In this document: in pieces, positions 13,655 to 62,520 of the stretch | Layout of the letters: each line of letters opens with the position of its first letter | Position numbering within the stretch: the first letter of the stretch is position 1 | Virus record (IMG/VR): IMGVR_UViG_3300032303_002590 | Source: a virus | Taxonomy: Duplodnaviria > Caudoviricetes | Length of the DNA stretch: 64,000 nucleotides | Direction: 5' to 3' (one strand) | Notes under the pieces: generated by a model | What the model was told of the DNA's origin: nothing | The model's input: the letters and a program-made list of their open reading frames with translations, nothing else | Databases searched by the model: none | Program-made: the position numbers and the translations under genes

Positions 13655-13698
13655 TTTTTTTATCTTACTATATTTATATATAAACACAAATAAAATTT

Positions 13699-50116: not shown

Positions 50117-50608
50117 ATTAAAAAACTATTATACATATTATATTTCATTCCACTACTATGTCATTCACAGAATATCATAATAGGAGATTCACAAACACCT
50201 TACATTGATAAGCATTCAGATAAGGTAGAAAAAGTACAATCATTATGGAAAGGTGGAATAGGAGTTAAAAAATTAACTTCAATGGTTTTGAATTATAAAA
50301 CATCACCTGAAATAAAAAATGTAGTTTTATGTATAGGAACAAATGATACTTTCCAAGCAGGAAATATTAAGCAATTGTTTCAAGCAGTAAAAAGAACTTT
50401 TCCAAACGCTACTATTTATGCAATAAAAGGATCATGGAGTTGGGGAAACAACAAAAACATAACACAACAAAAAGTAAACAAATATTATAAACTATACGAA
50501 CAACAAGGAGCAATCATACTAGATCCAGCAATAGGAAATAATAATCCTCACAAAGATCTACCAGTTTATAAAACAATAGCAAAAAAATTAGACAGTATTT
50601 TAAAATAA
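50117..50608 (+). CDS. SGNH/GDSL hydrolase-like protein (frame extends to ATT at 50117)
   Basis: In-frame IKKLLYILYFIPLLCHS-QNIIIGDSQT upstream of ATG 50282; IGTND block III; NPH. Confidence 0.55.
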   Translation: MKKLLYILYFIPLLCHSQNIIIGDSQTPYIDKHSDKVEKVQSLWKGGIGVKKLTSMVLNYKTSPEIKNVVLCIGTNDTFQAGNIKQLFQAVKRTFPNATIYAIKGSWSWGNNKNITQQKVNKYYKLYEQQGAIILDPAIGNNNPHKDLPVYKTIAKKLDSILK

Positions 50609-50631
50609 ATCGAGGTTTTTATCTCTATTAC

Positions 50632-50640
50632 ATATTTATA
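50632..50640 (+). promoter_or_regulatory. Putative late promoter driving the tRNA-array leader
   Basis: ATATTTATA, 15 nt before the leader ATG. Confidence 0.55.
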
Positions 50641-50655
50641 GTCACAAAAATTAAA

Positions 50656-50799
50656 ATGAAAGCACAACAAAACATACATCAAGATTTAACTACAATAATG
50701 AGTAGAGCCATTCAACTATGGTCGAATTTATTATGTGGGGATGTCATTTTAGGCTTTACGTATAATAACGAACCGAAAACAACCAAAACCGGGATATGA
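50656..50799 (+). CDS. Putative attenuator leader peptide (47 aa, all 20 amino acids)
   Basis: MKAQQNIHQDLTTIMSRAIQLWSNLLCGDVILGFTYNNEPKTTKTGI*; A-rich start context; followed by a terminator. Confidence 0.7.
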   Translation: MKAQQNIHQDLTTIMSRAIQLWSNLLCGDVILGFTYNNEPKTTKTGI

Positions 50800-50832
50800 T
50801 ATAAGAAATTATAACATATAAATTCTAATAAG

Positions 50833-50866
50833 AAACCCGGATCAAAAAAGATTCGGGTTTTTTTTT
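50833..50866 (+). terminator. Intrinsic terminator of the putative attenuator
   Basis: AAACCCGGATC-A6-GATTCGGGTTT with the T run extending to 50866. Confidence 0.85.
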
Positions 50867-50875
50867 ATAGAAAAA

Positions 50876-50908
50876 TTTGGATAAGCAAAAGATAATTCGT
50901 ATATTTCG
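50876..50908 (+). promoter_or_regulatory. Host-type promoter for the tRNA array
   Basis: TTTG (TTG 50877)-N20-TATATTTCG. Confidence 0.65.
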
Positions 50909-50956
50909 AATGTTAAAAAAATAAATTGTTCATTGACATATTGGATAAAGCAAAAT

Positions 50957-51040
50957 GGAAGGCATCCGGCTGGATCAGGAGCTACTCTTGAAAAGTAGTA
51001 GCAGGTAATACTGTTGTGGGTTCGAGTCCCACGTCTTCCT
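50957..51040 (+). tRNA. tRNA-Ser(TGA)
   Basis: CTACT-CTTGAAA-AGTAG; long variable arm; GTGGG-TTCGAGT-CCCAC. Confidence 0.9.
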
Positions 51041-51046
51041 CAATAT

Positions 51047-51118
51047 TGGCTTATAGTGTAACGGTTAGCACAAAACACTTTGACTGTTTTAGTTTGGGTT
51101 CGAATCCCGATAAGCCAT
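51047..51118 (+). tRNA. tRNA-Gln(TTG)
   Basis: AAACA-CTTTGAC-TGTTT; acceptor TGGCTTA/TAAGCCA. Confidence 0.92.
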
Positions 51119-51128
51119 CAAATAATTA

Positions 51129-51204
51129 CTGGATGTAGAGGAGCCCGGTTTATCTCGCTGGCCTTGGACGCTAGAGCACGCAGGTTCGAATCCTGCCATC
51201 CCGA
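51129..51204 (+). tRNA. tRNA-Pro(TGG)
   Basis: CTGGC-CTTGGAC-GCTAG; GCAGG-TTCGAAT-CCTGC. Confidence 0.9.
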
Positions 51205-51210
51205 CAAATT

Positions 51211-51281
51211 GCCCTTCAAGCTTTAAGGTGAAGCACGATACTTTTAATATCGGGAATCAGGATCATTACCTGAGAGGGGTA
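51211..51281 (+). tRNA. tRNA-Lys(TTT), atypical T loop
   Basis: CGATA-CTTTTAA-TATCG; T arm TCAGG-ATCATTA-CCTGA. Confidence 0.8.
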
Positions 51282-51326
51282 CAATGTTAATTAGGTTTTG
51301 GTCGTTTTTCCTAAAAACTACCCGAA

Positions 51327-51397
51327 GCCTCGTTGGCGTAATGGAAGCGTATTTGTTTTACATGCAAATGGCAGTGGTTCGATTCCACTACGAGGTA
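51327..51397 (+). tRNA. tRNA-Val(TAC)
   Basis: TTTGT-TTTACAT-GCAAA; AGTGG-TTCGATT-CCACT. Confidence 0.9.
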
Positions 51398-51402
51398 CAA
51401 AA

Positions 51403-51483
51403 GGGTAGCAAAAGTCGTTCGGATACGGCAGCCAGACTGTAAATTTGGTCCTCACGGGAGTGGTTCGAGTCCACTGCTGCCCA
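51403..51483 (+). tRNA. tRNA-Tyr(GTA)
   Basis: CCAGA-CTGTAAA-TTTGG; variable arm present. Confidence 0.88.
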
Positions 51484-51500
51484 CAAACTAAAATTAATAA

Positions 51501-51821
51501 ATGGAAACTAAAAGTAAATACTCAGGAAGAGGAAATTATAGAGATTTTTCAAAAATATTAATAGGAGAAGAAATTGTTAAAAATTCTTACTATAACTCTA
51601 TCACAGGAGCTCTTAAAAGATATTTATATCGAAATGGAATTAAAAGTGAAAAATGTGAAGATTGTGGTATTACAGAATGGAATAATAAAAAAATTTCGTT
51701 TGATTTAGAACATATAGATGGTAATTCTTCTAATAATTTATTAGAAAATTTAAAAATATTATGTCCTAATTGCCATTCACAAACTTCTACCTATAAAGGA
51801 AGAAATATAAAGAAAAAATAA
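51501..51821 (+). CDS. HNH endonuclease inserted in the tRNA array
   Basis: CEDCG...LEHIDGNSSNN.LENL..LCPNCHSQT. Confidence 0.88.
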   Translation: METKSKYSGRGNYRDFSKILIGEEIVKNSYYNSITGALKRYLYRNGIKSEKCEDCGITEWNNKKISFDLEHIDGNSSNNLLENLKILCPNCHSQTSTYKGRNIKKK

Positions 51822-51823
51822 TT

Positions 51824-51896
51824 GGGTCTTTGGTATAGCTGGTGCGTACGCTAGTCTGAAGAACTAGAGGAGCAGGTTCGATTCCTGCAGGACCCA
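51824..51896 (+). tRNA. tRNA-Phe(GAA)
   Basis: CTAGT-CTGAAGA-ACTAG. Confidence 0.9.
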
Positions 51897-51909
51897 CAAT
51901 ATTAACCTT

Positions 51910-51981
51910 GGACTTGTAGCTCAGAGGAAGAGCGTTCACCTGTTAAGTGAGGGGTCGGGATTTCGAAATTCCCCAAGTCCG
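51910..51981 (+). tRNA. tRNA-Asn(GTT)
   Basis: TTCAC-CTGTTAA-GTGAG; acceptor GGACTTG/CAAGTCC. Confidence 0.88.
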
Positions 51982-51988
51982 CAAAAAT

Positions 51989-52142
51989 GCACGTATAGAT
52001 GTGCTGTGGATACGCAGAGAACACATCGAGTGGGTTAGTGAGGGTAGTAGGTACACAACACTCCTTAATACTAGGATTGGAGCAAAGAGTTGATGCATAC
52101 TACAAGTAGTTAACAAGGCTGGTTCGATTCCAGTTACGGGCG
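51989..52142 (+). ncRNA. Extended tRNA-like RNA (about 154 nt)
   Basis: Acceptor GCACGTA/TACGGGC and T arm GCTGG-TTCGATT-CCAGT enclosing about 120 nt of hairpins. Confidence 0.65.
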
Positions 52143-52147
52143 CAATT

Positions 52148-52219
52148 GCTCCTATAGTAGAATGGTTAGCACACATCTCTGATAAGGATGAAATGGAAGT
52201 TCAATTCTTCCTAGGAGTA
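52148..52219 (+). tRNA. tRNA-Ile(GAT)
   Basis: CATCT-CTGATAA-GGATG. Confidence 0.9.
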
Positions 52220-52225
52220 CAAAAT

Positions 52226-52310
52226 GGAAAGTAAATCACACAGGGTGTGGGACCGCTTGCTAAGCGAATCGTGCGTTAATTCGCATGGGGATCGATACCT
52301 CTGCTTTCCT
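52226..52310 (+). tRNA. tRNA-Ser(GCT)
   Basis: CGC-TTGCTAA-GCG; long variable arm; T loop ATCGATA. Confidence 0.8.
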
Positions 52311-52317
52311 CTTTAAA

Positions 52318-52443
52318 AACCTGGTCCCTGTCCTCATAACGTGTTTAAGGAACACAGGAGTTGAATGTGCATTCGGGGCGGATAGTGGTGGGACACTGAT
52401 AAATAAAATCTTAAGCACAAAGATAAGTTAACGGGTTCTTATC
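52318..52443 (+). ncRNA. Putative structured RNA within the tRNA array
   Basis: GTCCC/GGGAC, CTGTCC/GGATAG, GATAAG/CTTATC stems. Confidence 0.4.
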
Positions 52444-52447
52444 AATT

Positions 52448-52515
52448 ACCAAGAGGTCAAGGACCAAGGACGGCTCATATCCGACCTTAGAATGGAGCGT
52501 TACCATTTCTTGGTA
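52448..52515 (+). tRNA. tRNA-Met/Ile2(CAT), minimal D arm and atypical T loop
   Basis: Acceptor ACCAAGA/TCTTGGT; D arm GGTC-AAG-GACC; CGG-CTCATAT-CCG; AATGG-AGCGTTA-CCATT. Confidence 0.7.
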
Positions 52516-52573
52516 CTGCATCTCCCAAGGGAGAAGGCTCTGGTTGACGATCTGACCTTATAGATCGTAACAT

Positions 52574-52647
52574 GGTGATTGTAGCTGAATTGGTAAAGCG
52601 TCTGATTGTGGTTCAGGAGATTGTGGGTTCGAGTCCCACCCTTCACA
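52574..52647 (+). tRNA. tRNA-His(GTG)
   Basis: TCTGA-TTGTGGT-TCAGG; G-1 present; two acceptor mismatches. Confidence 0.8.
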
Positions 52648-52653
52648 CTTAAT

Positions 52654-52727
52654 GCCCTCATGGTGAAACTGGTAAACACAACGGTTTTAAGCGCCGTAAG
52701 CTGTAGGTTCGAGTCCTACTGGGGGTA
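52654..52727 (+). tRNA. tRNA-Leu(TAA), short variable loop
   Basis: ACGGT-TTTAAGC-GCCGT; 5-nt variable region. Confidence 0.85.
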
Positions 52728-52797
52728 CAAAAATTATATGGAATAACATATAAAATTACAAAATATAGTGTAATTATATGTAAACACATATACAATT

Positions 52798-52869
52798 GGT
52801 CTTATAGTTTAATTGGAAAAACTTATCGCTACGAACGATAGAACAAAGGTTCGATCCCTTTTAAGACCT
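52798..52869 (+). tRNA. tRNA-Arg(ACG)
   Basis: TATCG-CTACGAA-CGATA. Confidence 0.9.
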
Positions 52870-52874
52870 CAACT

Positions 52875-52947
52875 GCCCTTATAGCATAAATGGAAATGCA
52901 ACATCCTTCTAAGATGTAAAATGGAGATTCGAATTCTTCTAGGGGTA
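52875..52947 (+). tRNA. tRNA-Arg(TCT)
   Basis: ACATC-CTTCTAA-GATGT. Confidence 0.88.
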
Positions 52948-53041
52948 CAAAAAAATCGCATGTATAGACAGATGATAATAATCAAAAGAGCTATTAAAGA
53001 AGTCTGATCAACTTTGGTAGAGTAAGCGATACTCTGCAAAT

Positions 53042-53112
53042 GCGTTCCGCAGACAAGGTGTCGGTACGGTCTCCAAAACTGTTACGGCTGGGTTCGATTC
53101 CTAGGGTTCGCG
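53042..53112 (+). tRNA. tRNA-Trp(CCA)
   Basis: ACGGT-CTCCAAA-ACTGT; CTGGG-TTCGATT-CCTAG; two T-T acceptor mismatches. Confidence 0.8.
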
Positions 53113-53275
53113 CAAGAATTTATAGTAAGAAACAAAGGGCAGGGCACAAAGACACTGAACATTGGAAGAGGTCGAGGAACTTCCATTACTATAAATTAAA
53201 ACAAATTGTTCATAACTTTATGGCTAGTTCTATAATTTCTTAAAATTTTCGTATATTTATAATAAACGGTAAGAT

Positions 53276-53977
53276 ATGAAAAAAATATGTACTAGGTGTA
53301 AAGAAGAAAAGGATTTAGATGAGTTTAGTAATTATAAAAGTTCTAAAGATGGTAAACATATTTACTGCAAAATATGCTCTAGAGATAAATCAAAACAACG
53401 ATACTCTCAGGATACTGAAAGAATAAAAAAGTATCGTGAGGATAATAAAGAAAAGATAAAAGAAATAAACAAAGCTTATAGTCTTAAAAATAAAGAGATA
53501 TTAAATGCTCGTTCTAAACAATGGAATTTAGATAATAAAGAAAAGAGACAAGAGTATGTAAAGCAATGGGCCAGGGAAAATTACGAAAAGAACCATTCTA
53601 AAGTGAGAGAATACCAAAACACCTATAGTAGGAGTAAGTATGCCAACGATCCTCTTTACAGACTCGCTCAACAACTTCGATCACTAATATATCAGAGTTT
53701 TAAGTATAAGTATAAAAAGCAAAAAAGAACACAGACAATACTAGGATGTACCTACGAAGAGTTCAGAATATACCTAGAGTCGAAATTTGAACCTTGGATG
53801 AATTGGGAAAACCAAGGATTGTACAATGGAGATTTTAATTTTGGTTGGGACATGGATCATATAGTGCCAGCTTCAAGTGCAAAAACTGAAGAGGAGATTT
53901 GTAAACTAAATCACTATACTAATTTACGACCCCTATGTTCTAAGGTAAACAGAGATATAAAGAAAAATAAAATATAA
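53276..53977 (+). CDS. HNH homing endonuclease-like protein (paralog of 26422 and 62591)
   Basis: CTRC...CKIC; WDMDHIVP...LNHYTNLRPL...N. Confidence 0.8.
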   Translation: MKKICTRCKEEKDLDEFSNYKSSKDGKHIYCKICSRDKSKQRYSQDTERIKKYREDNKEKIKEINKAYSLKNKEILNARSKQWNLDNKEKRQEYVKQWARENYEKNHSKVREYQNTYSRSKYANDPLYRLAQQLRSLIYQSFKYKYKKQKRTQTILGCTYEEFRIYLESKFEPWMNWENQGLYNGDFNFGWDMDHIVPASSAKTEEEICKLNHYTNLRPLCSKVNRDIKKNKI

Positions 53978-53981
53978 AGTC

Positions 53982-54488
53982 ATGTCAAAACATCAGAGAA
54001 CCTTAGTTATTGATTCAAGTTTTATGGCTCGCAGTATCATATCGACTGAGCGTGCTTTCGTGATTTCGTATAAGGGTAATGCAGAAGTTATAGCTGAACA
54101 CCCAGAAACATTCGGATTAGTAAATCCAAAACTAGAAATTTATAAACCTTCAATCATTAGGGTTTACAAATACGTAAAACAAAACATTCAAAAAGTTCCT
54201 CTAACAAGAGAGAATGTTTATCGAAGAGATAATTACGAATGTGTTTATTGCGGAGCAAGTCACATCAAGTCTCTAACGTTAGATCACGTCATTCCACAAT
54301 CAAAAGGTGGACAAAATGCTTGGGATAATTTAGTAACAGCATGTAGAACTTGTAATTCAGAAAAAGCAGATTTAACTCTTGAGGAATATGGTAAAGAGAT
54401 AGTAGAACCAAAAAGACCTCATTACTTAATGCTAATGAAACAACTAACATACATTCCAGTGGAATGGGAAACATTTTTATTTTTCTAG
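53982..54488 (+). CDS. HNH endonuclease (McrA-like)
   Basis: RRDNYECVYCG...TLDHVIPQSKGG...WDNLVTACRTCNSEK. Confidence 0.9.
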   Translation: MSKHQRTLVIDSSFMARSIISTERAFVISYKGNAEVIAEHPETFGLVNPKLEIYKPSIIRVYKYVKQNIQKVPLTRENVYRRDNYECVYCGASHIKSLTLDHVIPQSKGGQNAWDNLVTACRTCNSEKADLTLEEYGKEIVEPKRPHYLMLMKQLTYIPVEWETFLFF

Positions 54489-54495
54489 TAAAAAG

Positions 54496-54532
54496 TTTGG
54501 ATATTTAAAATATTGTTCGTATATTTAAGTAT
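54496..54532 (+). promoter_or_regulatory. Host-type promoter for the second tRNA block
   Basis: TTG 54497-N20-TATATTTAAGTAT. Confidence 0.7.
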
Positions 54533-54543
54533 AAGAAAGAAAC

Positions 54544-54649
54544 ATCACCTACTACGTAACGCACGATCGACGACACGTACTGTCTGGCAGGTCAGGCTAG
54601 GTGAAAATATAGAAAGGGAGATGTGGGTTCGAATCCCACCTGATCACCA
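54544..54649 (+). ncRNA. tRNA-like RNA ending in encoded CCA, lacking an anticodon arm
   Basis: GTGGG-TTCGAAT-CCCAC-CTGATC-A-CCA; GGTCAG/CTGATC; TCACCTA/TAGGTGA. Confidence 0.6.
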
Positions 54650-54690
54650 AATGGGGTCGGTAGTAATAATTGGCAATTACACTCTAGTAT

Positions 54691-54761
54691 GGGCAGTTGG
54701 CCGATTGGTTAGGCGCAGGATTGCAAACTCTGTTAGGTTGGTTCGATTCCAACATTGCCCT
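54691..54761 (+). tRNA. tRNA-Cys(GCA)
   Basis: CAGGA-TTGCAAA-CTCTG; U73. Confidence 0.88.
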
Positions 54762-54769
54762 CAACAATT

Positions 54770-54843
54770 GCCCGAGTAGCCGAATTGGTATAGGCGCTAG
54801 ACTTAGGATCTAGATTTTGCGAGTTCGAGTCTCGCCTTGGGTA
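54770..54843 (+). tRNA. tRNA-Leu(TAG), short variable loop
   Basis: CTAGA-CTTAGGA-TCTAG; variable region ATTTT. Confidence 0.88.
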
Positions 54844-54848
54844 CAAAA

Positions 54849-54915
54849 TTACAGTTAGCTTATAGTAAAGCAGCAGGGGCTAACCTGCAGAACGGATACG
54901 AACACCGACTGTAAT
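54849..54915 (+). ncRNA. Degenerate tRNA-like cloverleaf with 6-nt loop GGCTAA
   Basis: TTACAGT/ACTGTAA; GCTT/AAGC; GCAGG-GGCTAA-CCTGC; CGG...CCG. Confidence 0.55.
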
Positions 54916-54921
54916 TTAATT

Positions 54922-54994
54922 GCCTTGGTAGCTCAATTGGTAGAGCACTTGTTTTGTAAACAAGAAGTTGCAGGTTCGAGTCCTGTCCTTGGCT
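54922..54994 (+). tRNA. tRNA-Thr(TGT)
   Basis: CTTGT-TTTGTAA-ACAAG. Confidence 0.9.
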
Positions 54995-54998
54995 CAAA

Positions 54999-55101
54999 GT
55001 GTTGTTCCCTTGAGAAAGGAATAGAGTTTGGTAGGTAGGAAAATTAGATACAACTTGCGTGGTTAGTAAAATCTCTACACAACACAGAGGAACTCAACCT
55101 C
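54999..55101 (+). ncRNA. Putative structured RNA between tRNA-Thr and tRNA-Gly
   Basis: GTGTTG/CAACAC, TTCC/GGAA, TAGAG/CTCTA, GAGG/CCTC; complementary loops TTGAG/CTCAA. Confidence 0.5.
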
Positions 55102-55107
55102 AAAATT

Positions 55108-55179
55108 GCGAATGTCGTATAATGGTCATTACTCTTGACTTCCAATCAAGGGATGAGGGTTCGATTCCCTCCATTCGCT
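55108..55179 (+). tRNA. tRNA-Gly(TCC)
   Basis: CTTGA-CTTCCAA-TCAAG. Confidence 0.92.
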
Positions 55180-55185
55180 CAACCT

Positions 55186-55257
55186 GCTGCCATCGTCTAA
55201 CGGTCAGGACCTATGGTTTTCATCCATAAAATCGGAGTTCGATTCTCCGTGGCAGTA
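55186..55257 (+). tRNA. tRNA-Glu(TTC)
   Basis: TATGG-TTTTCAT-CCATA. Confidence 0.9.
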
Positions 55258-55262
55258 CAAAA

Positions 55263-55335
55263 GGGGTCATAGCTCAATTGGCTGAGCGTTACTTTTGCAA
55301 GGTAAAGGATGTGGGTTCGACTCCCATTGGCTCCA
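55263..55335 (+). tRNA. tRNA-Ala(TGC)
   Basis: TTACT-TTTGCAA-GGTAA; G3:U70. Confidence 0.92.
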
Positions 55336-55340
55336 CAAAA

Positions 55341-55411
55341 GGTCTAGTAGTGAAAAAGCATCATCCAACACTGTCACTGTTGAGTAGCCGGAGCGTTACC
55401 GGTCTAGACCG
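55341..55411 (+). tRNA. tRNA-Asp(GTC), atypical T loop
   Basis: CAACA-CTGTCAC-TGTTG; GCCGG-AGCGTTA-CCGGT. Confidence 0.82.
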
Positions 55412-55420
55412 CTAATAAAT

Positions 55421-55493
55421 TGCGTTAAAGTGTAAAGGTTGCATCCTGGTCTCATAAGCCAGGGGGGTGGTTCGAGTCCACGTTACGCTACCA
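55421..55493 (+). tRNA. tRNA-Met(CAT), initiator-like
   Basis: CTGGT-CTCATAA-GCCAG; 1:72 mismatch; encoded CCA. Confidence 0.8.
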
Positions 55494-55565
55494 GGCCTTG
55501 TAGCTCAAAGGAGGAGCAGTTCGCTCATAACGAAAAGGTTGGGATTTCGAAATTCCCCAAGGCCA
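55494..55565 (+). tRNA. tRNA-Ile2/Met(CAT)
   Basis: TTCG-CTCATAA-CGAA; acceptor GGCCTTG/CAAGGCC. Confidence 0.85.
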
Positions 55566-55631
55566 CTAAATTTATCCAATATGAGAGCAATTCAATCGTC
55601 TCCAATGTAGTTTTAGCTATTAGCTAAAATT

Positions 55632-55865
55632 ATGACTCAGAAATTGAGAATTTGGAGAGTAGTCCCTACCAGCATGACTGGTGTTCAGGCTCCCACGTTT
55701 TTTGTTGAAACAACAGAGAACGGACGAGAAGAAGCAGTACGATCTGCAAACCTACAAGCAAGACAAAAATCTGGCTTGGGTAAGTTTAACAATTGGTATT
55801 TTGAATTAACTAAAATGAATGTCAGAGTTGACAGACATGGAAAGTATATTCGTCATCACCAATAA
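55632..55865 (+). CDS. Hypothetical protein
   Basis: 77 aa ORF at the end of the tRNA array. Confidence 0.55.
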   Translation: MTQKLRIWRVVPTSMTGVQAPTFFVETTENGREEAVRSANLQARQKSGLGKFNNWYFELTKMNVRVDRHGKYIRHHQ

Positions 55866-55880
55866 GATAAAAATATTCGG

Positions 55881-55924
55881 AGAAAGATTTGGATATCTGG
55901 ATCTTTCTTCTTATATTAAAGTAT
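55881..55924 (+). promoter_or_regulatory. Hairpin overlapping a host-type promoter
   Basis: AGAAAGATTTGG...CTGGATCTTTCT; TTG 55889-N20-TATATTAA. Confidence 0.55.
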
Positions 55925-56031
55925 AAAATAAAAGTTATGGAAATATTAGGAGGAATTTGTATTGGGTATTTTTTAAGACCATACATAGATGTTATAATTA
56001 AAATTATTAAAAATAGTTTAAAAAATTAGTT

Positions 56032-58669: not shown

Positions 58670-59320
58670 ATGAAAATAGAATTACAAAAAGGACAACAAT
58701 TGTTCTTCACATCAGACACACATTACGCTCACTCAAACATTTGTAGTGCTACTACAAACTGGACTGAGTCTTCAAACTTGACAAGAGAATTCAATTCACT
58801 TGATCATATGAATGCTACTCTAGTGAATAACATTAACTGTATGGTTGGTGAAGATGATATCTTAATTCACTTAGGTGACTGGTCATTTGGAGGATTTGAA
58901 AAAGTACAAGAATTCAGAGATAGAATTGTTTGTAAAAACATTCACTTGGTACTTGGGAATCACGATCATCATATCGAACGAAACAAAGAAGGTATTCAAT
59001 CATTATTCTCCTCAGTACAAAACTACTTGAGACTAGAAGTAAGAAGACAAGTTAGTAAATCTATGATGGAAAAGTTTATTTTCGTTTGTATGCACTATCC
59101 AATAGCGTCATGGCATGATATGAACCAAGGAGTAATTCACTTGCATGGACACGTTCATTTACCTGCAAACCTACGAATAGCCGAGGGTAAAGCAATGGAT
59201 GTAGGAGTAGATGGAAATGGTTTAGAGCCTTTATCAATGAACGAGGTATTATCGTTAATGGATAAACAACCAATTAAAAAATTAGCCTTACCAAAGGATC
59301 ATCATGAGAAAAGAATCTAA
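58670..59320 (+). CDS. Calcineurin-like metallophosphoesterase
   Basis: FTSDTH, HLGD, GNHD, MHYP, LHGHVH, DVGVD. Confidence 0.9.
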   Translation: MKIELQKGQQLFFTSDTHYAHSNICSATTNWTESSNLTREFNSLDHMNATLVNNINCMVGEDDILIHLGDWSFGGFEKVQEFRDRIVCKNIHLVLGNHDHHIERNKEGIQSLFSSVQNYLRLEVRRQVSKSMMEKFIFVCMHYPIASWHDMNQGVIHLHGHVHLPANLRIAEGKAMDVGVDGNGLEPLSMNEVLSLMDKQPIKKLALPKDHHEKRI

Positions 59321-60173
59321 AAAAATATTACATAAAGGAAGAATCTATCTGAAAGATGGAGTATGGGTAGTGAGGTATGAAACTAAAGAGAAAGTTAAAG
59401 GAGGTTCTCCTAAACAACTTGGAAGTTATAATATCAGAACAAAAGCTAATTTTATACCTATCATAGTAGAAGACACTAAAAATTTAATAGATCCTTATAG
59501 TCAGGGTAAAGAAACTTGTTTTGAATATATCATAAAAACTGAAATAGAAAACGGTTATAAGAATCAACCACCAGGAACAATAGGGTTTGTAGCGCAAACT
59601 AAACAAGTATGGTACGCTAAATTATGGCCTGTTTCTGAAATGGCTCAAGAATTGCAACATTATTTTGAAACAACACCTCAAGAAAAAATTGATGAGGATT
59701 GGGAGAAAGTAAAGGAATTTGACTTAGTAGGACCAACAGTAGAAGAATTTTTAGGAATAAATCAAAATAGTATGAAAGAGTTATTTTTATTAAGAGGATT
59801 ACCTGGCTCAGGTAAATCAACATTAGCAAAATCAATTGGACCTATTACTATTGAAGCAGATCAATATTTTATAGATTCAGATGGAGAGTATAAATTTGAT
59901 GCTTCACAATTAAAAAATGCTCACCAATATTGCCAAGGACAAACTCAAGCATGGATGAAGATGAACTCGGATCAACTTAATACTGATAAGATTGTAGTAT
60001 CAAATACATTTACTCAGGAATGGGAAATGCAACCATACTTTGACCTAGCAGACAAATACGGATACAGAGTTTATTCTTTAATTGTAGAAAATAGACATGG
60101 AGGAGTAAACGAGCATGGAGTACCAGAAGAAAAATTAGTACAAATGAAAAATAGATTTCAAATTCTTCTCTAA
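59304..60173 (+). CDS. Fusion ORF with C-terminal polynucleotide kinase-like (AAA_33) domain; internal ATG at 59772
   Basis: MKELFLLRGLPGSGKSTLA, EADQYF, AHQYC, VSNTFT. Confidence 0.8.
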   Translation: MRKESKKILHKGRIYLKDGVWVVRYETKEKVKGGSPKQLGSYNIRTKANFIPIIVEDTKNLIDPYSQGKETCFEYIIKTEIENGYKNQPPGTIGFVAQTKQVWYAKLWPVSEMAQELQHYFETTPQEKIDEDWEKVKEFDLVGPTVEEFLGINQNSMKELFLLRGLPGSGKSTLAKSIGPITIEADQYFIDSDGEYKFDASQLKNAHQYCQGQTQAWMKMNSDQLNTDKIVVSNTFTQEWEMQPYFDLADKYGYRVYSLIVENRHGGVNEHGVPEEKLVQMKNRFQILL

Positions 60174-60223: not shown

Positions 60224-60868
60224 ATGAAAAAGTATTATGTGTATTGTCACAAAGATCCAACAACACAAGAAATTTTCTATATAGGAAAAGGAAGTGGACC
60301 TAGAGCATATGTGACTCAATCAAGAGGAAAGTATTGGAAGAATTATGTAAACAAACATGGTATTCCTATTGTAGAAATTCTATATGAAAATTTAGAAGAA
60401 GAAGAGTCTTTTACATTAGAGAAGCAATTAATCCAATCCCTAGGAAGAAGAGACTTGGGAACAGGTATATTAGTTAATACAACAGATGGTGGAGAAGGTT
60501 GCAGTGGAATGATACATTCTGAAGAGACTAAGAAAAACCTGAGAGAATCTCGAAAAGGAAAACCAAGTAATAATAAAGGGAAGACATGGATCCAAAAAAA
60601 TAAAAGAGAAAACAATATTCCTAGAGGAAGCTATAAGACTAGAAAAGATAAAGGAAAAACCTTTAGTTCTGAAATAAAAGAAAAAATGAAAGAAGGAAAA
60701 CGTGACAAAACTAAAGAAGTATTACAATTCGACCTTCAGAATAATTTAATCAGAGAATGGAGAAGTGCTGCCGATGCTATCGACAGTACTGGACTATGTG
60801 GGATTTATAATTGTTTAACAGGAATCTCAAAACAATCTGGTAAATTTATTTGGAAATATAAAGAATAA
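60224..60868 (+). CDS. GIY-YIG homing endonuclease with NUMOD-like repeats
   Basis: YYVY...FYIGKG..R; LVNTTDGGEG; HSEETK; VLQFDLQNNLIREW. Confidence 0.85.
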   Translation: MKKYYVYCHKDPTTQEIFYIGKGSGPRAYVTQSRGKYWKNYVNKHGIPIVEILYENLEEEESFTLEKQLIQSLGRRDLGTGILVNTTDGGEGCSGMIHSEETKKNLRESRKGKPSNNKGKTWIQKNKRENNIPRGSYKTRKDKGKTFSSEIKEKMKEGKRDKTKEVLQFDLQNNLIREWRSAADAIDSTGLCGIYNCLTGISKQSGKFIWKYKE

Positions 60869-60885
60869 TTCGTATATTTAAGTAT
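60849..60885 (+). promoter_or_regulatory. Host-type promoter
   Basis: TTG 60850-N20-TATATTTAAGTAT. Confidence 0.65.
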
Positions 60886-61091: not shown

Positions 61092-61415
61092 ATGGAAAAT
61101 AAAAAAGCACCTAAGAAAATCCAAATAGAAAAACAAATATATTGGGGTAATAACAGTAAACAAATGACTTGGGCTGATATTAAACATCTGGAATTACATG
61201 ACGATGACGTAATACACTCAGGATGGGTTGATGATGAAAATTTTGATTATCATGGGTATTGGCATAATGAAATTACTCGTATGGTTGAAGAAACAGATCA
61301 ACAATTTGAAAAACGTATTGCTAAGATGAAGCAAGACGATATTTGGGCAAAAGAAAGAAGAAGAGAAAGTTATTTAAGACTAAAAGAAGAATTTGAAAAT
61401 GGAAAATCAAAATAG
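61092..61415 (+). CDS. Hypothetical protein
   Basis: Ends ERRRESYLRLKEEFE. Confidence 0.55.
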   Translation: MENKKAPKKIQIEKQIYWGNNSKQMTWADIKHLELHDDDVIHSGWVDDENFDYHGYWHNEITRMVEETDQQFEKRIAKMKQDDIWAKERRRESYLRLKEEFENGKSK

Positions 61416-62520
61416 TGTTTGCTTTGTAGCAAAAATAAATGAAGTAAAAGCAATCGAAGGAGCTGATAACATCGAACAAGCAGTTATCGGAGGATGGAAT
61501 TGTATTGTAAAAAAAGGATCACATAAAGTAAATGATCTAGTAGGAGTTGCAACAACTGATGCAGTTATTCCTCAAGGACTAGCAGATGCTATTGGAATTG
61601 CAAATTACCTAAGAAAAGGAAATAGAGTTAGAACTGTAAAGCTAAGAGGAGTGTATTCTGAATGCTTAGTAATTCCAGATCAATTCTTACCTATTGGTAT
61701 CAACCATGAAGGTAAAGATTTAATGGAAACTTTAAAAATTTCTAAATACGAACCACCAGTTAAACAAATTCAACTTGCTTCAGGTAGAAAAATTAAATGG
61801 AGAGACAATCAAAACTTCCATATCTATTACAAATTCCCAAACCTTAAAAACGTTGACGGAATGTTCACTGAACAAGATGAAGTTCAAATTACTAGAAAGA
61901 TTCACGGTACAAATGCTAGATACGGTATTGTGAAGAAAGGTCAATTAACATTCTGGGATAAAGTAAAAAAATTCTTAAGAATTGCAAATGAGTGGATTGA
62001 CTACGAATACATTTACGGATCACACAATTGTGAGAAAGGAAGTGACTCTCAAGGATTCTATTCAACTGATGTTTGGAGAACAGTTGCTGAAAAGTATGAT
62101 ATCAAAGCAAAGCTTTGGCAAGAAGCAAAACGTCAAGGTTCTGATTTAGGTGAAGGATTAATTCTTTACGGAGAAATTTACGGAGCAGGTATTCAAAAGA
62201 ATTACGAATATGGTTTAAAAGATATTGAGTTTGTAGCATTCGATATTAAAATAAATGGAGAATATTGTGCGACAGAAGTAACTGAAGTTATTACTCAAGA
62301 TTTATTAGACCTTCCTCACGTAGAGGTTCTTTATGAAGGATTATGGAATCAAGAGATACAAGATGAATATGTATTTAACAACTTCATTCCAGGTACAAAA
62401 GTACCGCATGAAGGAATTGTAATCAAAACAACCTCAGGTGAAAGAAACAAAGTAGCAAAGGTAATTAATAGCGATTATCTTATTTATGGTGAAAAACACG
62501 ATATAGGGGATAGTCATTAG
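61399..62520 (+). CDS. RNA ligase, DRB0094/Rnl2-like family
   Basis: IEGADNIE, VKLRGVYSE, motif I RKIHGTN, YGEIYG, FDI, EGIVIK, AKVIN. Confidence 0.88.
   Translation: MENQNSVCFVAKINEVKAIEGADNIEQAVIGGWNCIVKKGSHKVNDLVGVATTDAVIPQGLADAIGIANYLRKGNRVRTVKLRGVYSECLVIPDQFLPIGINHEGKDLMETLKISKYEPPVKQIQLASGRKIKWRDNQNFHIYYKFPNLKNVDGMFTEQDEVQITRKIHGTNARYGIVKKGQLTFWDKVKKFLRIANEWIDYEYIYGSHNCEKGSDSQGFYSTDVWRTVAEKYDIKAKLWQEAKRQGSDLGEGLILYGEIYGAGIQKNYEYGLKDIEFVAFDIKINGEYCATEVTEVITQDLLDLPHVEVLYEGLWNQEIQDEYVFNNFIPGTKVPHEGIVIKTTSGERNKVAKVINSDYLIYGEKHDIGDSH

Follow-up and report, generated by a model that had tools for sequence, protein, structure and literature searches.

A presumably translated leader and a terminator ahead of a phage tRNA array as a probable ribosome-mediated attenuator gauging decoding capacity

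The 64,000-nucleotide (nt) stretch of viral DNA analyzed here (the window; IMG/VR record IMGVR_UViG_3300032303_002590, Duplodnaviria, Caudoviricetes) contains a large tRNA array, at the 5' edge of which lie a short open reading frame (ORF) and a predicted intrinsic terminator. Comparison of sequences indicates that this unit (50614 to 50866) is probably a ribosome-mediated attenuator that gauges general decoding capacity, and a leader-terminator unit of the same predicted form precedes tRNA arrays in this phage and well over 100 relatives. More tentatively, the leader may be a selected whole-code test track, in which all amino acids, almost all decoding boxes, and fixed rare NNG and NNC codons are kept within about 46 codons. 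On such a track, a shortfall of any tRNA, whether through scarcity, lack of charging, or anticodon-nuclease cleavage, would delay the ribosome and open transcription of the near-complete phage tRNA set, a proposal that we place somewhat short of probable. If true, tRNA genes would be regulated by the very decoding capacity that they supply, and the phage would carry a sensor of host defenses that target tRNA. The features of the unit and its presumed target are as follows.

50614 to 50641, plus strand: promoter-like motif of the leader unit (a T-rich stretch, ATCT, and then CATATTTATAG)
50656 to 50799, plus strand: leader ORF (47 codons, all 20 amino acids, 24 of 25 decoding boxes, 8 rare codons)
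50789 to 50793, plus strand: putative antiterminator strand A' (CCGGG), in codons 45 and 46, complementary to 50836 to 50840
50794 to 50819, plus strand: predicted hairpin P1, with the last sense codon and the TGA stop in its 5' arm
50823 to 50834, plus strand: mini-hairpin (TTCT-AATA-AGAA), predicted in the antiterminated fold only and the weakest part
50833 to 50866, plus strand: predicted intrinsic terminator (5' arm 50833 to 50843, loop 50844 to 50849, 3' arm 50850 to 50860, U-tract to 50866)
50836 to 50840, plus strand: core B (CCCGG), within the terminator 5' arm
50957 to 55566, plus strand: tRNA array, the presumed regulated target (21 tRNAs by ARAGORN)

The original prediction, made from the letters of the window, described the ORF at 50656 to 50799 as encoding a 47-residue peptide with all 20 amino acids, 29 distinct codons (including all four Thr codons), and codons for 24 of 25 decoding boxes, and each of these statements was confirmed on checking; CGN is the sole box without a codon. 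It also described the G/C-ending codons of the leader as uncommon in the genome, and they are indeed scarce, with TCG, GTC, ACG, and CCG each making up 2% of the codons for their own amino acid in phage genes, GGC 3%, GGG 6%, and GCC 7%. With a rare codon defined as one that makes up <8% of its amino acid's codons in phage genes, 8 of the 47 leader codons are rare, compared with 4.1% of gene codons (P = 6e-4), and the family mean is 9.5. Coverage of all 20 amino acids arises by chance in 1.1% of random 47-mers and is found in 0.4% of the 47-residue windows in real proteins encoded by the window and in 1 of 37 small ATG ORFs within it. Taken from one window, the coverage is therefore unremarkable and gains significance solely through its upkeep across relatives.

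The leader family comprises about 140 distinct peptides of 44 to 54 codons from uncultured Flavobacterium-type phages. The relatives come from 52 protein clusters, 53 viral contigs, and 60 metagenome contigs (mostly from lakes, with some marine), and 19 more distant cluster representatives were obtained by an exhaustive profile search. A same-strand tRNA array, usually opening with tRNA-Ser(UGA), lies 113 to 866 nt downstream of the leader ORF in all 54 of the first loci, and in metagenome loci with enough flank the ORF is likewise directly 5' of a same-strand array. Among distant relatives, linkage to an array is seen in three of the four examined; the sequence of the fourth ends about 300 nt past the ORF, and the terminator and a conserved pre-tRNA motif alone are visible. 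The predicted position in front of a tRNA array is therefore retained wherever the flank sufficed. Proteins of the upstream neighbors are only 41 to 66% identical between loci, so the phages are well diverged. Among GenBank phages, a DNA search with an 801-nt region gave no match, and tblastn of the leader peptide gave chance matches only. In Flavobacterium phage immuto, the closest cultured relative, the syntenic region contains only four tRNAs and lacks a homologue of the leader; a small coding sequence 5' of its tRNA-Ser uses 18 kinds of amino acid and apparently overlaps a tRNA-like sequence. One metagenome contig (L110; L numbers denote individual loci) has two leader-terminator units in tandem, about 320 nt apart. 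The first is of a Cys/Trp-poor “SLW/SLR” type, which may be a paralogue, and the second is canonical.

The reading frame of the leader is conserved in these relatives, as had been proposed. The start ATG is invariant, and neither the 109 loci with a complete ORF nor any of the family peptides show an interrupted frame. The family has at least 10 indel events, each of them a multiple of 3. Among 43 unique ORFs, AAC, AGA, TTT, TAT, and AAA codons are fixed (43/43 each), GGC is kept in 42, and TCG and CCG are kept in 38. The substitution pattern was compared with that of a neighboring HNH gene in the same loci.

Neighboring HNH gene: 85% amino-acid identity, 0.69 identical codons at identical residues, 12 loci
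Leader ORF: 63% amino-acid identity, 0.85 identical codons at identical residues, the same 12 loci

The pattern in the leader is the inverse of that of a normal gene and points to selection on codons rather than on the protein. Analysis with alifold found essentially no conserved RNA structure in the ORF body that could account for the codon conservation. Position-conserved residues of the peptide are N6, I7, Q9, R17, L26, C27, G28, G33, and Y36 to K41. Scans of the peptide against Pfam and PHROGs returned no family, and an AlphaFold model made with an alignment has one helix, a predicted local distance difference test score (pLDDT) of 60, and a predicted template modeling score (pTM) of 0.29; the fold is not confident, and this prediction is uninformative, speaking neither for nor against a protein function. 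Taken on its frame and codons, the leader ORF is presumably read by ribosomes.

Amino-acid and codon diversity upstream of the arrays is above the null expectation in relatives, as the original prediction anticipated. The main family comprises 120 unique peptides, and 114 of them contain all 20 amino acids, compared with 94.7 ± 2.6 expected when consensus-identical positions are kept and diverged positions are randomized. The 19 distant representatives include 12 with all 20 amino acids (2.5 expected; P < 5e-6), six with 19, and one with 18. Singleton residues that have been lost are found elsewhere in the peptide for His (11/11), Trp (5/6), Phe (2/2), and Glu (2/2), the exceptions in the main family being Cys (1/5) and Arg (0/1). 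Loss of His-8 occurred in at least four lineages, and each has gained a His at another site; distant members variously have Arg, His, Trp, Cys, Pro, Tyr, and Phe at new positions. All-20 coverage is thus actively maintained by compensatory relocation of residues. The decoding boxes are similarly well represented; every one of the 43 unique ORFs of the first set covers 23 to 25 of 25, both Ser, both Leu, and both Ile classes included (null probability of at least 23, 1.6%).

The end of the ORF is under a different kind of constraint. The C-terminal residues are highly variable (TGI, TEV, DLG, TGV, IGV, IWE, and others), yet their nucleotides are complementary to the local terminator 5' arm. The A':B pairing is kept in more than 10 sequence classes at 5 to 8 base pairs (bp), with 7 to 8 bp in many relatives. 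The classes include the following.

A' CCGGG with B CCCGG: the class of the window
A' CCGAG with B CUCGG: the 3' arm is also altered, to UCGAG
A' CCGGG with B CUCGG: one G.U pair
A' GAUCUGGG with B CCCGGAUC
A' GAUCUGGG with B CCCAGAUC: L095, where the change perfects A':B and gives an A.C mismatch in the terminator
A' GAUUUGGG with B CCCAAAUC
A' GAUUUGGG with B CCCGAAUC
A' GGUACC with B GGUACC
A' UCCGGGU with B ACCCGGA
A' AUCCGGG with B CCCGGAU
A' CUGAGG with B CCUCGG

In the DLG class, the synonymous Leu codon tracks the arm, CUG accompanying a G there and UUG an A. Binding of the final 24 nt of the ORF to their own arm is calculated at −10.2 kcal/mol, compared with −3 to −5 kcal/mol for other ORF segments. 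Own A':B pairings have a mean of −10.35 compared with −9.07 ± 0.18 for permuted pairings (P < 5e-5), and a fixed-column count gives 85% pairing for the A':B helix, 12 cells having changes on both sides, a result matched by none of 500 shuffles and far above slid controls; shared ancestry is only partly controlled in these permutation and shuffle statistics. The number of distinct A'/B sequence solutions is the stronger argument. The covariation of antiterminator and terminator strands that had been forecast is thus seen in more than 10 classes and passes the permutation, sliding, and shuffle controls.

Folding of the nascent RNA agrees with this pairing. RNA that stops short of the terminator 3' arm gains 7.2 kcal/mol in stability over RNA with a shuffled ORF end (z = −3.7). 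In the minimum-free-energy (MFE) structures of nascent RNA from five classes, A':B encloses or is stacked on P1, and full-length RNA instead folds into P1 and the terminator. Pairing of 4 bp or more between ORF end and arm was present in every nascent MFE structure (72 of 72), but shuffled and substituted controls gave 64 to 83%; this test is not discriminating, and the energy-based tests took its place. The mini-hairpin is present in the MFE structure of RNA cut before the terminator 3' arm, and the linker sequence is conserved. In the window, the CCGGG at 50789 to 50793, the CCCGG at 50836 to 50840, the hairpin at 50794 to 50819, and the terminator at 50833 to 50866 were all found where they had been placed, and a 106-nt region here folds at −28.3 kcal/mol (z = −6.6).

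Across the family, the terminator helix is 96% paired over 43 sequences, with three pairs changed on both sides. The terminator itself (an 11- to 14-bp stem and a U-tract) is found in 105 of 108 loci, and the others comprise two with a single mismatch and one with a deletion. L095 and L112 have a G-to-A change in the 5' arm that gives an A.C mismatch in the terminator (in L095 the ORF-end pairing is perfected as well), and the 3' arm is deleted in L043. The stop codon is paired in the P1 MFE hairpin in 61 of 62 unique spacers, and L016 has a compensatory change in P1 (TATAA/TTATA to TGTAA/TTACA). Spacing is also constrained, with the distance from the stop codon to the terminator core held at 28 to 37 nt and A' ending 1 to 15 nt before the stop codon in all classes. 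The family offers a natural mutational series, with antiterminators of 5 to 8 bp, a 3'-arm deletion, tandem leaders, and a downstream promoter present or absent.

If the ORF were simply a small phage protein gene equipped with a promoter and terminator of its own, syntenic with the start of the array by happenstance, its terminator would do no more than shield the array from upstream transcription, and the complementarity would be incidental. This would explain the positional conservation of peptide residues and the separate array promoter found at most loci, and all-20 coverage of one ORF is by itself too common to decide the matter. We regard this explanation as unlikely, since such a gene would not be expected to conserve codons better than amino acids, the opposite of its neighbor, to fix rare codons, or to relocate lost residues systematically. 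Nor would it account for C-terminal residues that vary freely while keeping complementarity to the local terminator arm, and the peptide has neither a Pfam or PHROG family nor a confident fold. In three loci, moreover, the distance from the U-tract to the first tRNA (45 nt in L052, 39 nt in L100, and 9 nt in L106) is too short for a promoter, and the array must therefore be transcribed through the terminator.

For the attenuator, we infer the following course of events. Transcripts from the leader promoter or from upstream genes would carry the 47-codon ORF, and in them A' (CCGGG) would be able to pair with B (CCCGG), stacked on P1. A ribosome in step with RNA polymerase would reach the stop codon, cover A', and melt P1, whereupon B would pair with the 3' arm and transcription would end at 50866. 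A ribosome that lagged or stalled in the first 40 or so codons, or that was never loaded, would leave A':B to form first, in kinetic competition with the terminator, which would be pre-empted, and the tRNA genes would be transcribed. The original prediction had a ribosome at the stop masking CCGGG, and the folding calculations agree with it: when a ribosome footprint is masked on the stop codon, A' and P1 are lost and the terminator alone remains, and on geometry A' stays accessible if the ribosome is held farther upstream than about 15 nt. That P1, which holds the stop codon, acts as a pause hairpin is conjecture. The leader is rich in diverse codons (20 amino acids, 23 to 25 of 25 boxes, and fixed rare NNG and NNC codons), and for this reason the signal would be general decoding capacity. 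Homeostatic feedback is the likely outcome, with poor decoding (tRNAs scarce, uncharged, or damaged) leading to more tRNA transcription and good decoding leading to termination; starvation or an anticodon nuclease could be the physiological trigger.

The same RNA switch could be driven by a sequence-specific nascent-peptide arrest of the TnaC, SecM, or Erm type, in which codon supply would be irrelevant, a small molecule or a state of the ribosome would be the trigger, and the conserved peptide blocks would act in the exit tunnel. QNIHQ and G-F-x-Y-N-N-E-P-K are indeed conserved in position, which pure codon sampling does not explain, and a Pro lies 6 to 7 codons before the stop. However, distant relatives change YNNEPK (to FNSEYK, YNKQNE, or EYNQPR) and still retain all 20 amino acids, and arrest peptides need neither complete coverage of amino acids and boxes nor fixed rare codons; we consider arrest as the signal to be improbable. 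A third explanation, that the product is the terminated transcript of about 210 nt, a stable small or dual-function RNA that works in trans (tRNA processing and host targets being examples) and whose alternative pairing serves maturation or stability, seems less probable still. The unit does run self-contained from promoter to terminator, nucleotide conservation is strong from the middle of the ORF to the terminator, and small RNAs derived from attenuators exist, such as rnTrpL (PMC6614838). Against this, the ORF body has no conserved secondary structure, the strict conservation of frame and the selection on composition point to translation, and A':B and the terminator are mutually exclusive, as a switch needs and a stable fold does not.

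Several observations weigh against an attenuator that senses decoding capacity. Of 78 unique loci, 70 (the window among them) have a promoter-like site after the terminator and ahead of the first tRNA, and with such an independent promoter the attenuator would control only the extra flux from upstream. The predicted energies of the two states in the window differ in favor of the terminator (−13.7 kcal/mol for the antiterminator and −25.3 kcal/mol for the terminator). The window-class A':B is only 5 bp, among the weakest versions in the family. Because the loop-proximal part of the terminator arm is not engaged in this helix, the 3' arm might invade there and displace it. No upstream region complementary to A' was found that could act as a region-1-like anti-antiterminator (this candidate was rejected, as the MFE structure has just a 3-bp CCG/CGG contact), and untranslated RNA would presumably read through by default. 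L045 and L030 fit the A':B pairing poorly. The blocks QNIHQ and YNNEPK are fixed in position although some of their codons recur elsewhere in the ORF; pure codon sampling leaves this unexplained, and there is therefore room for a nascent-peptide component. Coverage also has gaps, which concern CGN in 39 and an internal Met in 26 of 43 leaders, and one clade has no Cys in the leader although its phages encode tRNA-Cys. A one-to-one match between leader content and array content was rejected on the same grounds, namely, Cys-less leaders with tRNA-Cys and the absence of CGN where tRNA-Arg(ACG) is present. The “universal” of the original prediction overstates the coverage, given the gaps at CGN, internal Met, and the Cys of that clade.

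Two further elements were identified between the terminator and the first tRNA of the window.

50876 to 50906, plus strand: predicted independent host-type promoter of the array (TTTGGATA...TTCGTATATTT)
50928 to 50949, plus strand: conserved 22-nt motif GTTCATTGACATATTGGATAAA, just 5' of the first tRNA and unique in the window

The host-type promoter expected downstream of the terminator is real in shape, and near-identical copies of it recur at 54496 (54496 to 54526) and 60849 (60849 to 60879). The three promoter-like sites share the form TTTGGA.A, 13 nt, and TTCGTATATTT; two precede segments of the tRNA array, and one precedes the RNA ligase region. The host-type promoter pattern has nine matches in the window, compared with 2.4 expected. 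The 22-nt motif is almost unchanged across loci, lying 7 to 10 nt before the first tRNA, and it precedes tRNA-Ser in almost all of them, distant relatives included (L126, L127, L128, and L130). Its possible functions include those of a promoter element and of a site for pre-tRNA processing or binding. tRNA-like sequences (GGGCGGTGGTAAAT...GGTTCGA...) that ARAGORN does not call lie between the promoter and the pre-tRNA motif in L003/L025 (about 12617 to 12735 of L003) and, downstream of the terminator, in L043 and L045.

The motif upstream of the leader had been labeled “late type,” and this is a fair label because it recurs before baseplate genes. The leader-type shape, found on the plus strand only, also precedes the baseplate hub (13699), a 790-residue ORF (14743), and the baseplate wedge (19544). 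Its copies (a T-rich stretch, ATCT, and yATATTTATA) are at 13669, 14716, 19520, 50631, and 53252, about 25 to 50 nt 5' of start codons, the last of them 5' of an endonuclease VII-like gene. The motif is a candidate phage late or middle promoter. Many relatives have a host-type TTG-N19-TATATTTATATAT promoter in its place.

An extra tRNA at 55421 to 55490 is detected with Rfam (31.6 bits) and is not in the ARAGORN list. Homing-type endonuclease genes lie within the tRNA arrays, in the window at 51501 to 51821, 53276 to 53977, and 53982 to 54488 (HNH and endonuclease VII-like). The HNH gene at 53982 is 80 to 97% identical across phages whose other genes are about 50% identical, and L005 has a GIY-YIG gene after the terminator. 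Downstream of the array are genes for a phosphoesterase (58670 to 59320), a polynucleotide kinase (PNK)-like ATPase (59304 to 60173), and an RNA ligase (61393 to 62520), with PHROG matches of 2e-42, 2e-40, and 5e-49, respectively. This set looks like a tRNA healing-and-sealing kit and fits a phage that contends with tRNA damage.

The reason for large phage tRNA arrays (codon compensation or counter-defense) is still debated. In current views, large phage tRNA sets make up for host tRNAs lost to depletion or cleavage in infection (PMC10264068; PMC11464382; PMC11555353), and the feedback proposed here fits these views. Studies of phage tRNA arrays in counter-defense are on tRNA function; here, an RNA repair kit is also nearby. 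A full-text literature search found no description of a translated attenuator controlling a phage tRNA array, which is limited evidence of absence.

The nearest known relatives in mechanism are the trp, his, leu, thr, pheA/pheL, and ilv attenuators (the Yanofsky model; a pheL survey is given in PMC3082878), which also have a short translated leader and a terminator. As in those of amino-acid operons, an upstream helix shares the terminator 5' arm and excludes the terminator, the position of the ribosome would decide between them, and the stop codon lies beside the competing strand. The element differs from the trp/his type in its codons, which represent all 20 amino acids and 23 to 25 of 25 boxes in place of a single-codon regulatory run, and in its output, which is tRNA genes and not biosynthetic enzymes. 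Its carrier is a phage of a Bacteroidota-type host. It appears to have no 1:2 anti-antiterminator, so that a lack of translation would mean read-through, and its predicted antiterminator is a three-way junction stacked on the stop-codon hairpin. The element would thus work like the trp/his attenuators, and, having no single-codon run, it falls outside the amino-acid-specific class.

T-box riboswitches likewise link tRNA status to the choice between terminator and antiterminator, as proposed here, but they bind one uncharged tRNA directly, without translation. A permissive Rfam scan of 50400 to 56000 found no T-box and no family other than tRNA, the remaining matches being sub-threshold and terminator-like, among them Thr_leader at 27.8 bits with a cut-off of 55. 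In the kind of signal, the element is closest to general translation-stress attenuators such as bmrB-bmrCD of Bacillus subtilis (PMC4191407). In that system and in the macrolide-inducible mef/msrD leaders (PMC4335068), the leader reports the general state of the ribosome and stalling leads to read-through, as is proposed here. Those systems, however, connect ribosome-targeting drugs to efflux or protection genes and their leaders are not composition complete, whereas here the output is tRNAs and the feedback would be direct.

If the reading is true, it would supply a concrete mechanism for a phage to gauge decoding capacity and replenish tRNAs as needed, and it would extend leader-peptide attenuation from one amino acid to the whole code, with tRNA genes as the output. 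A composition-complete leader with rare codons could also be a compact reporter of global tRNA supply. Compared with the described cases that we found, what is new is the output (a tRNA array), the carrier (a phage), and the composition-complete leader.

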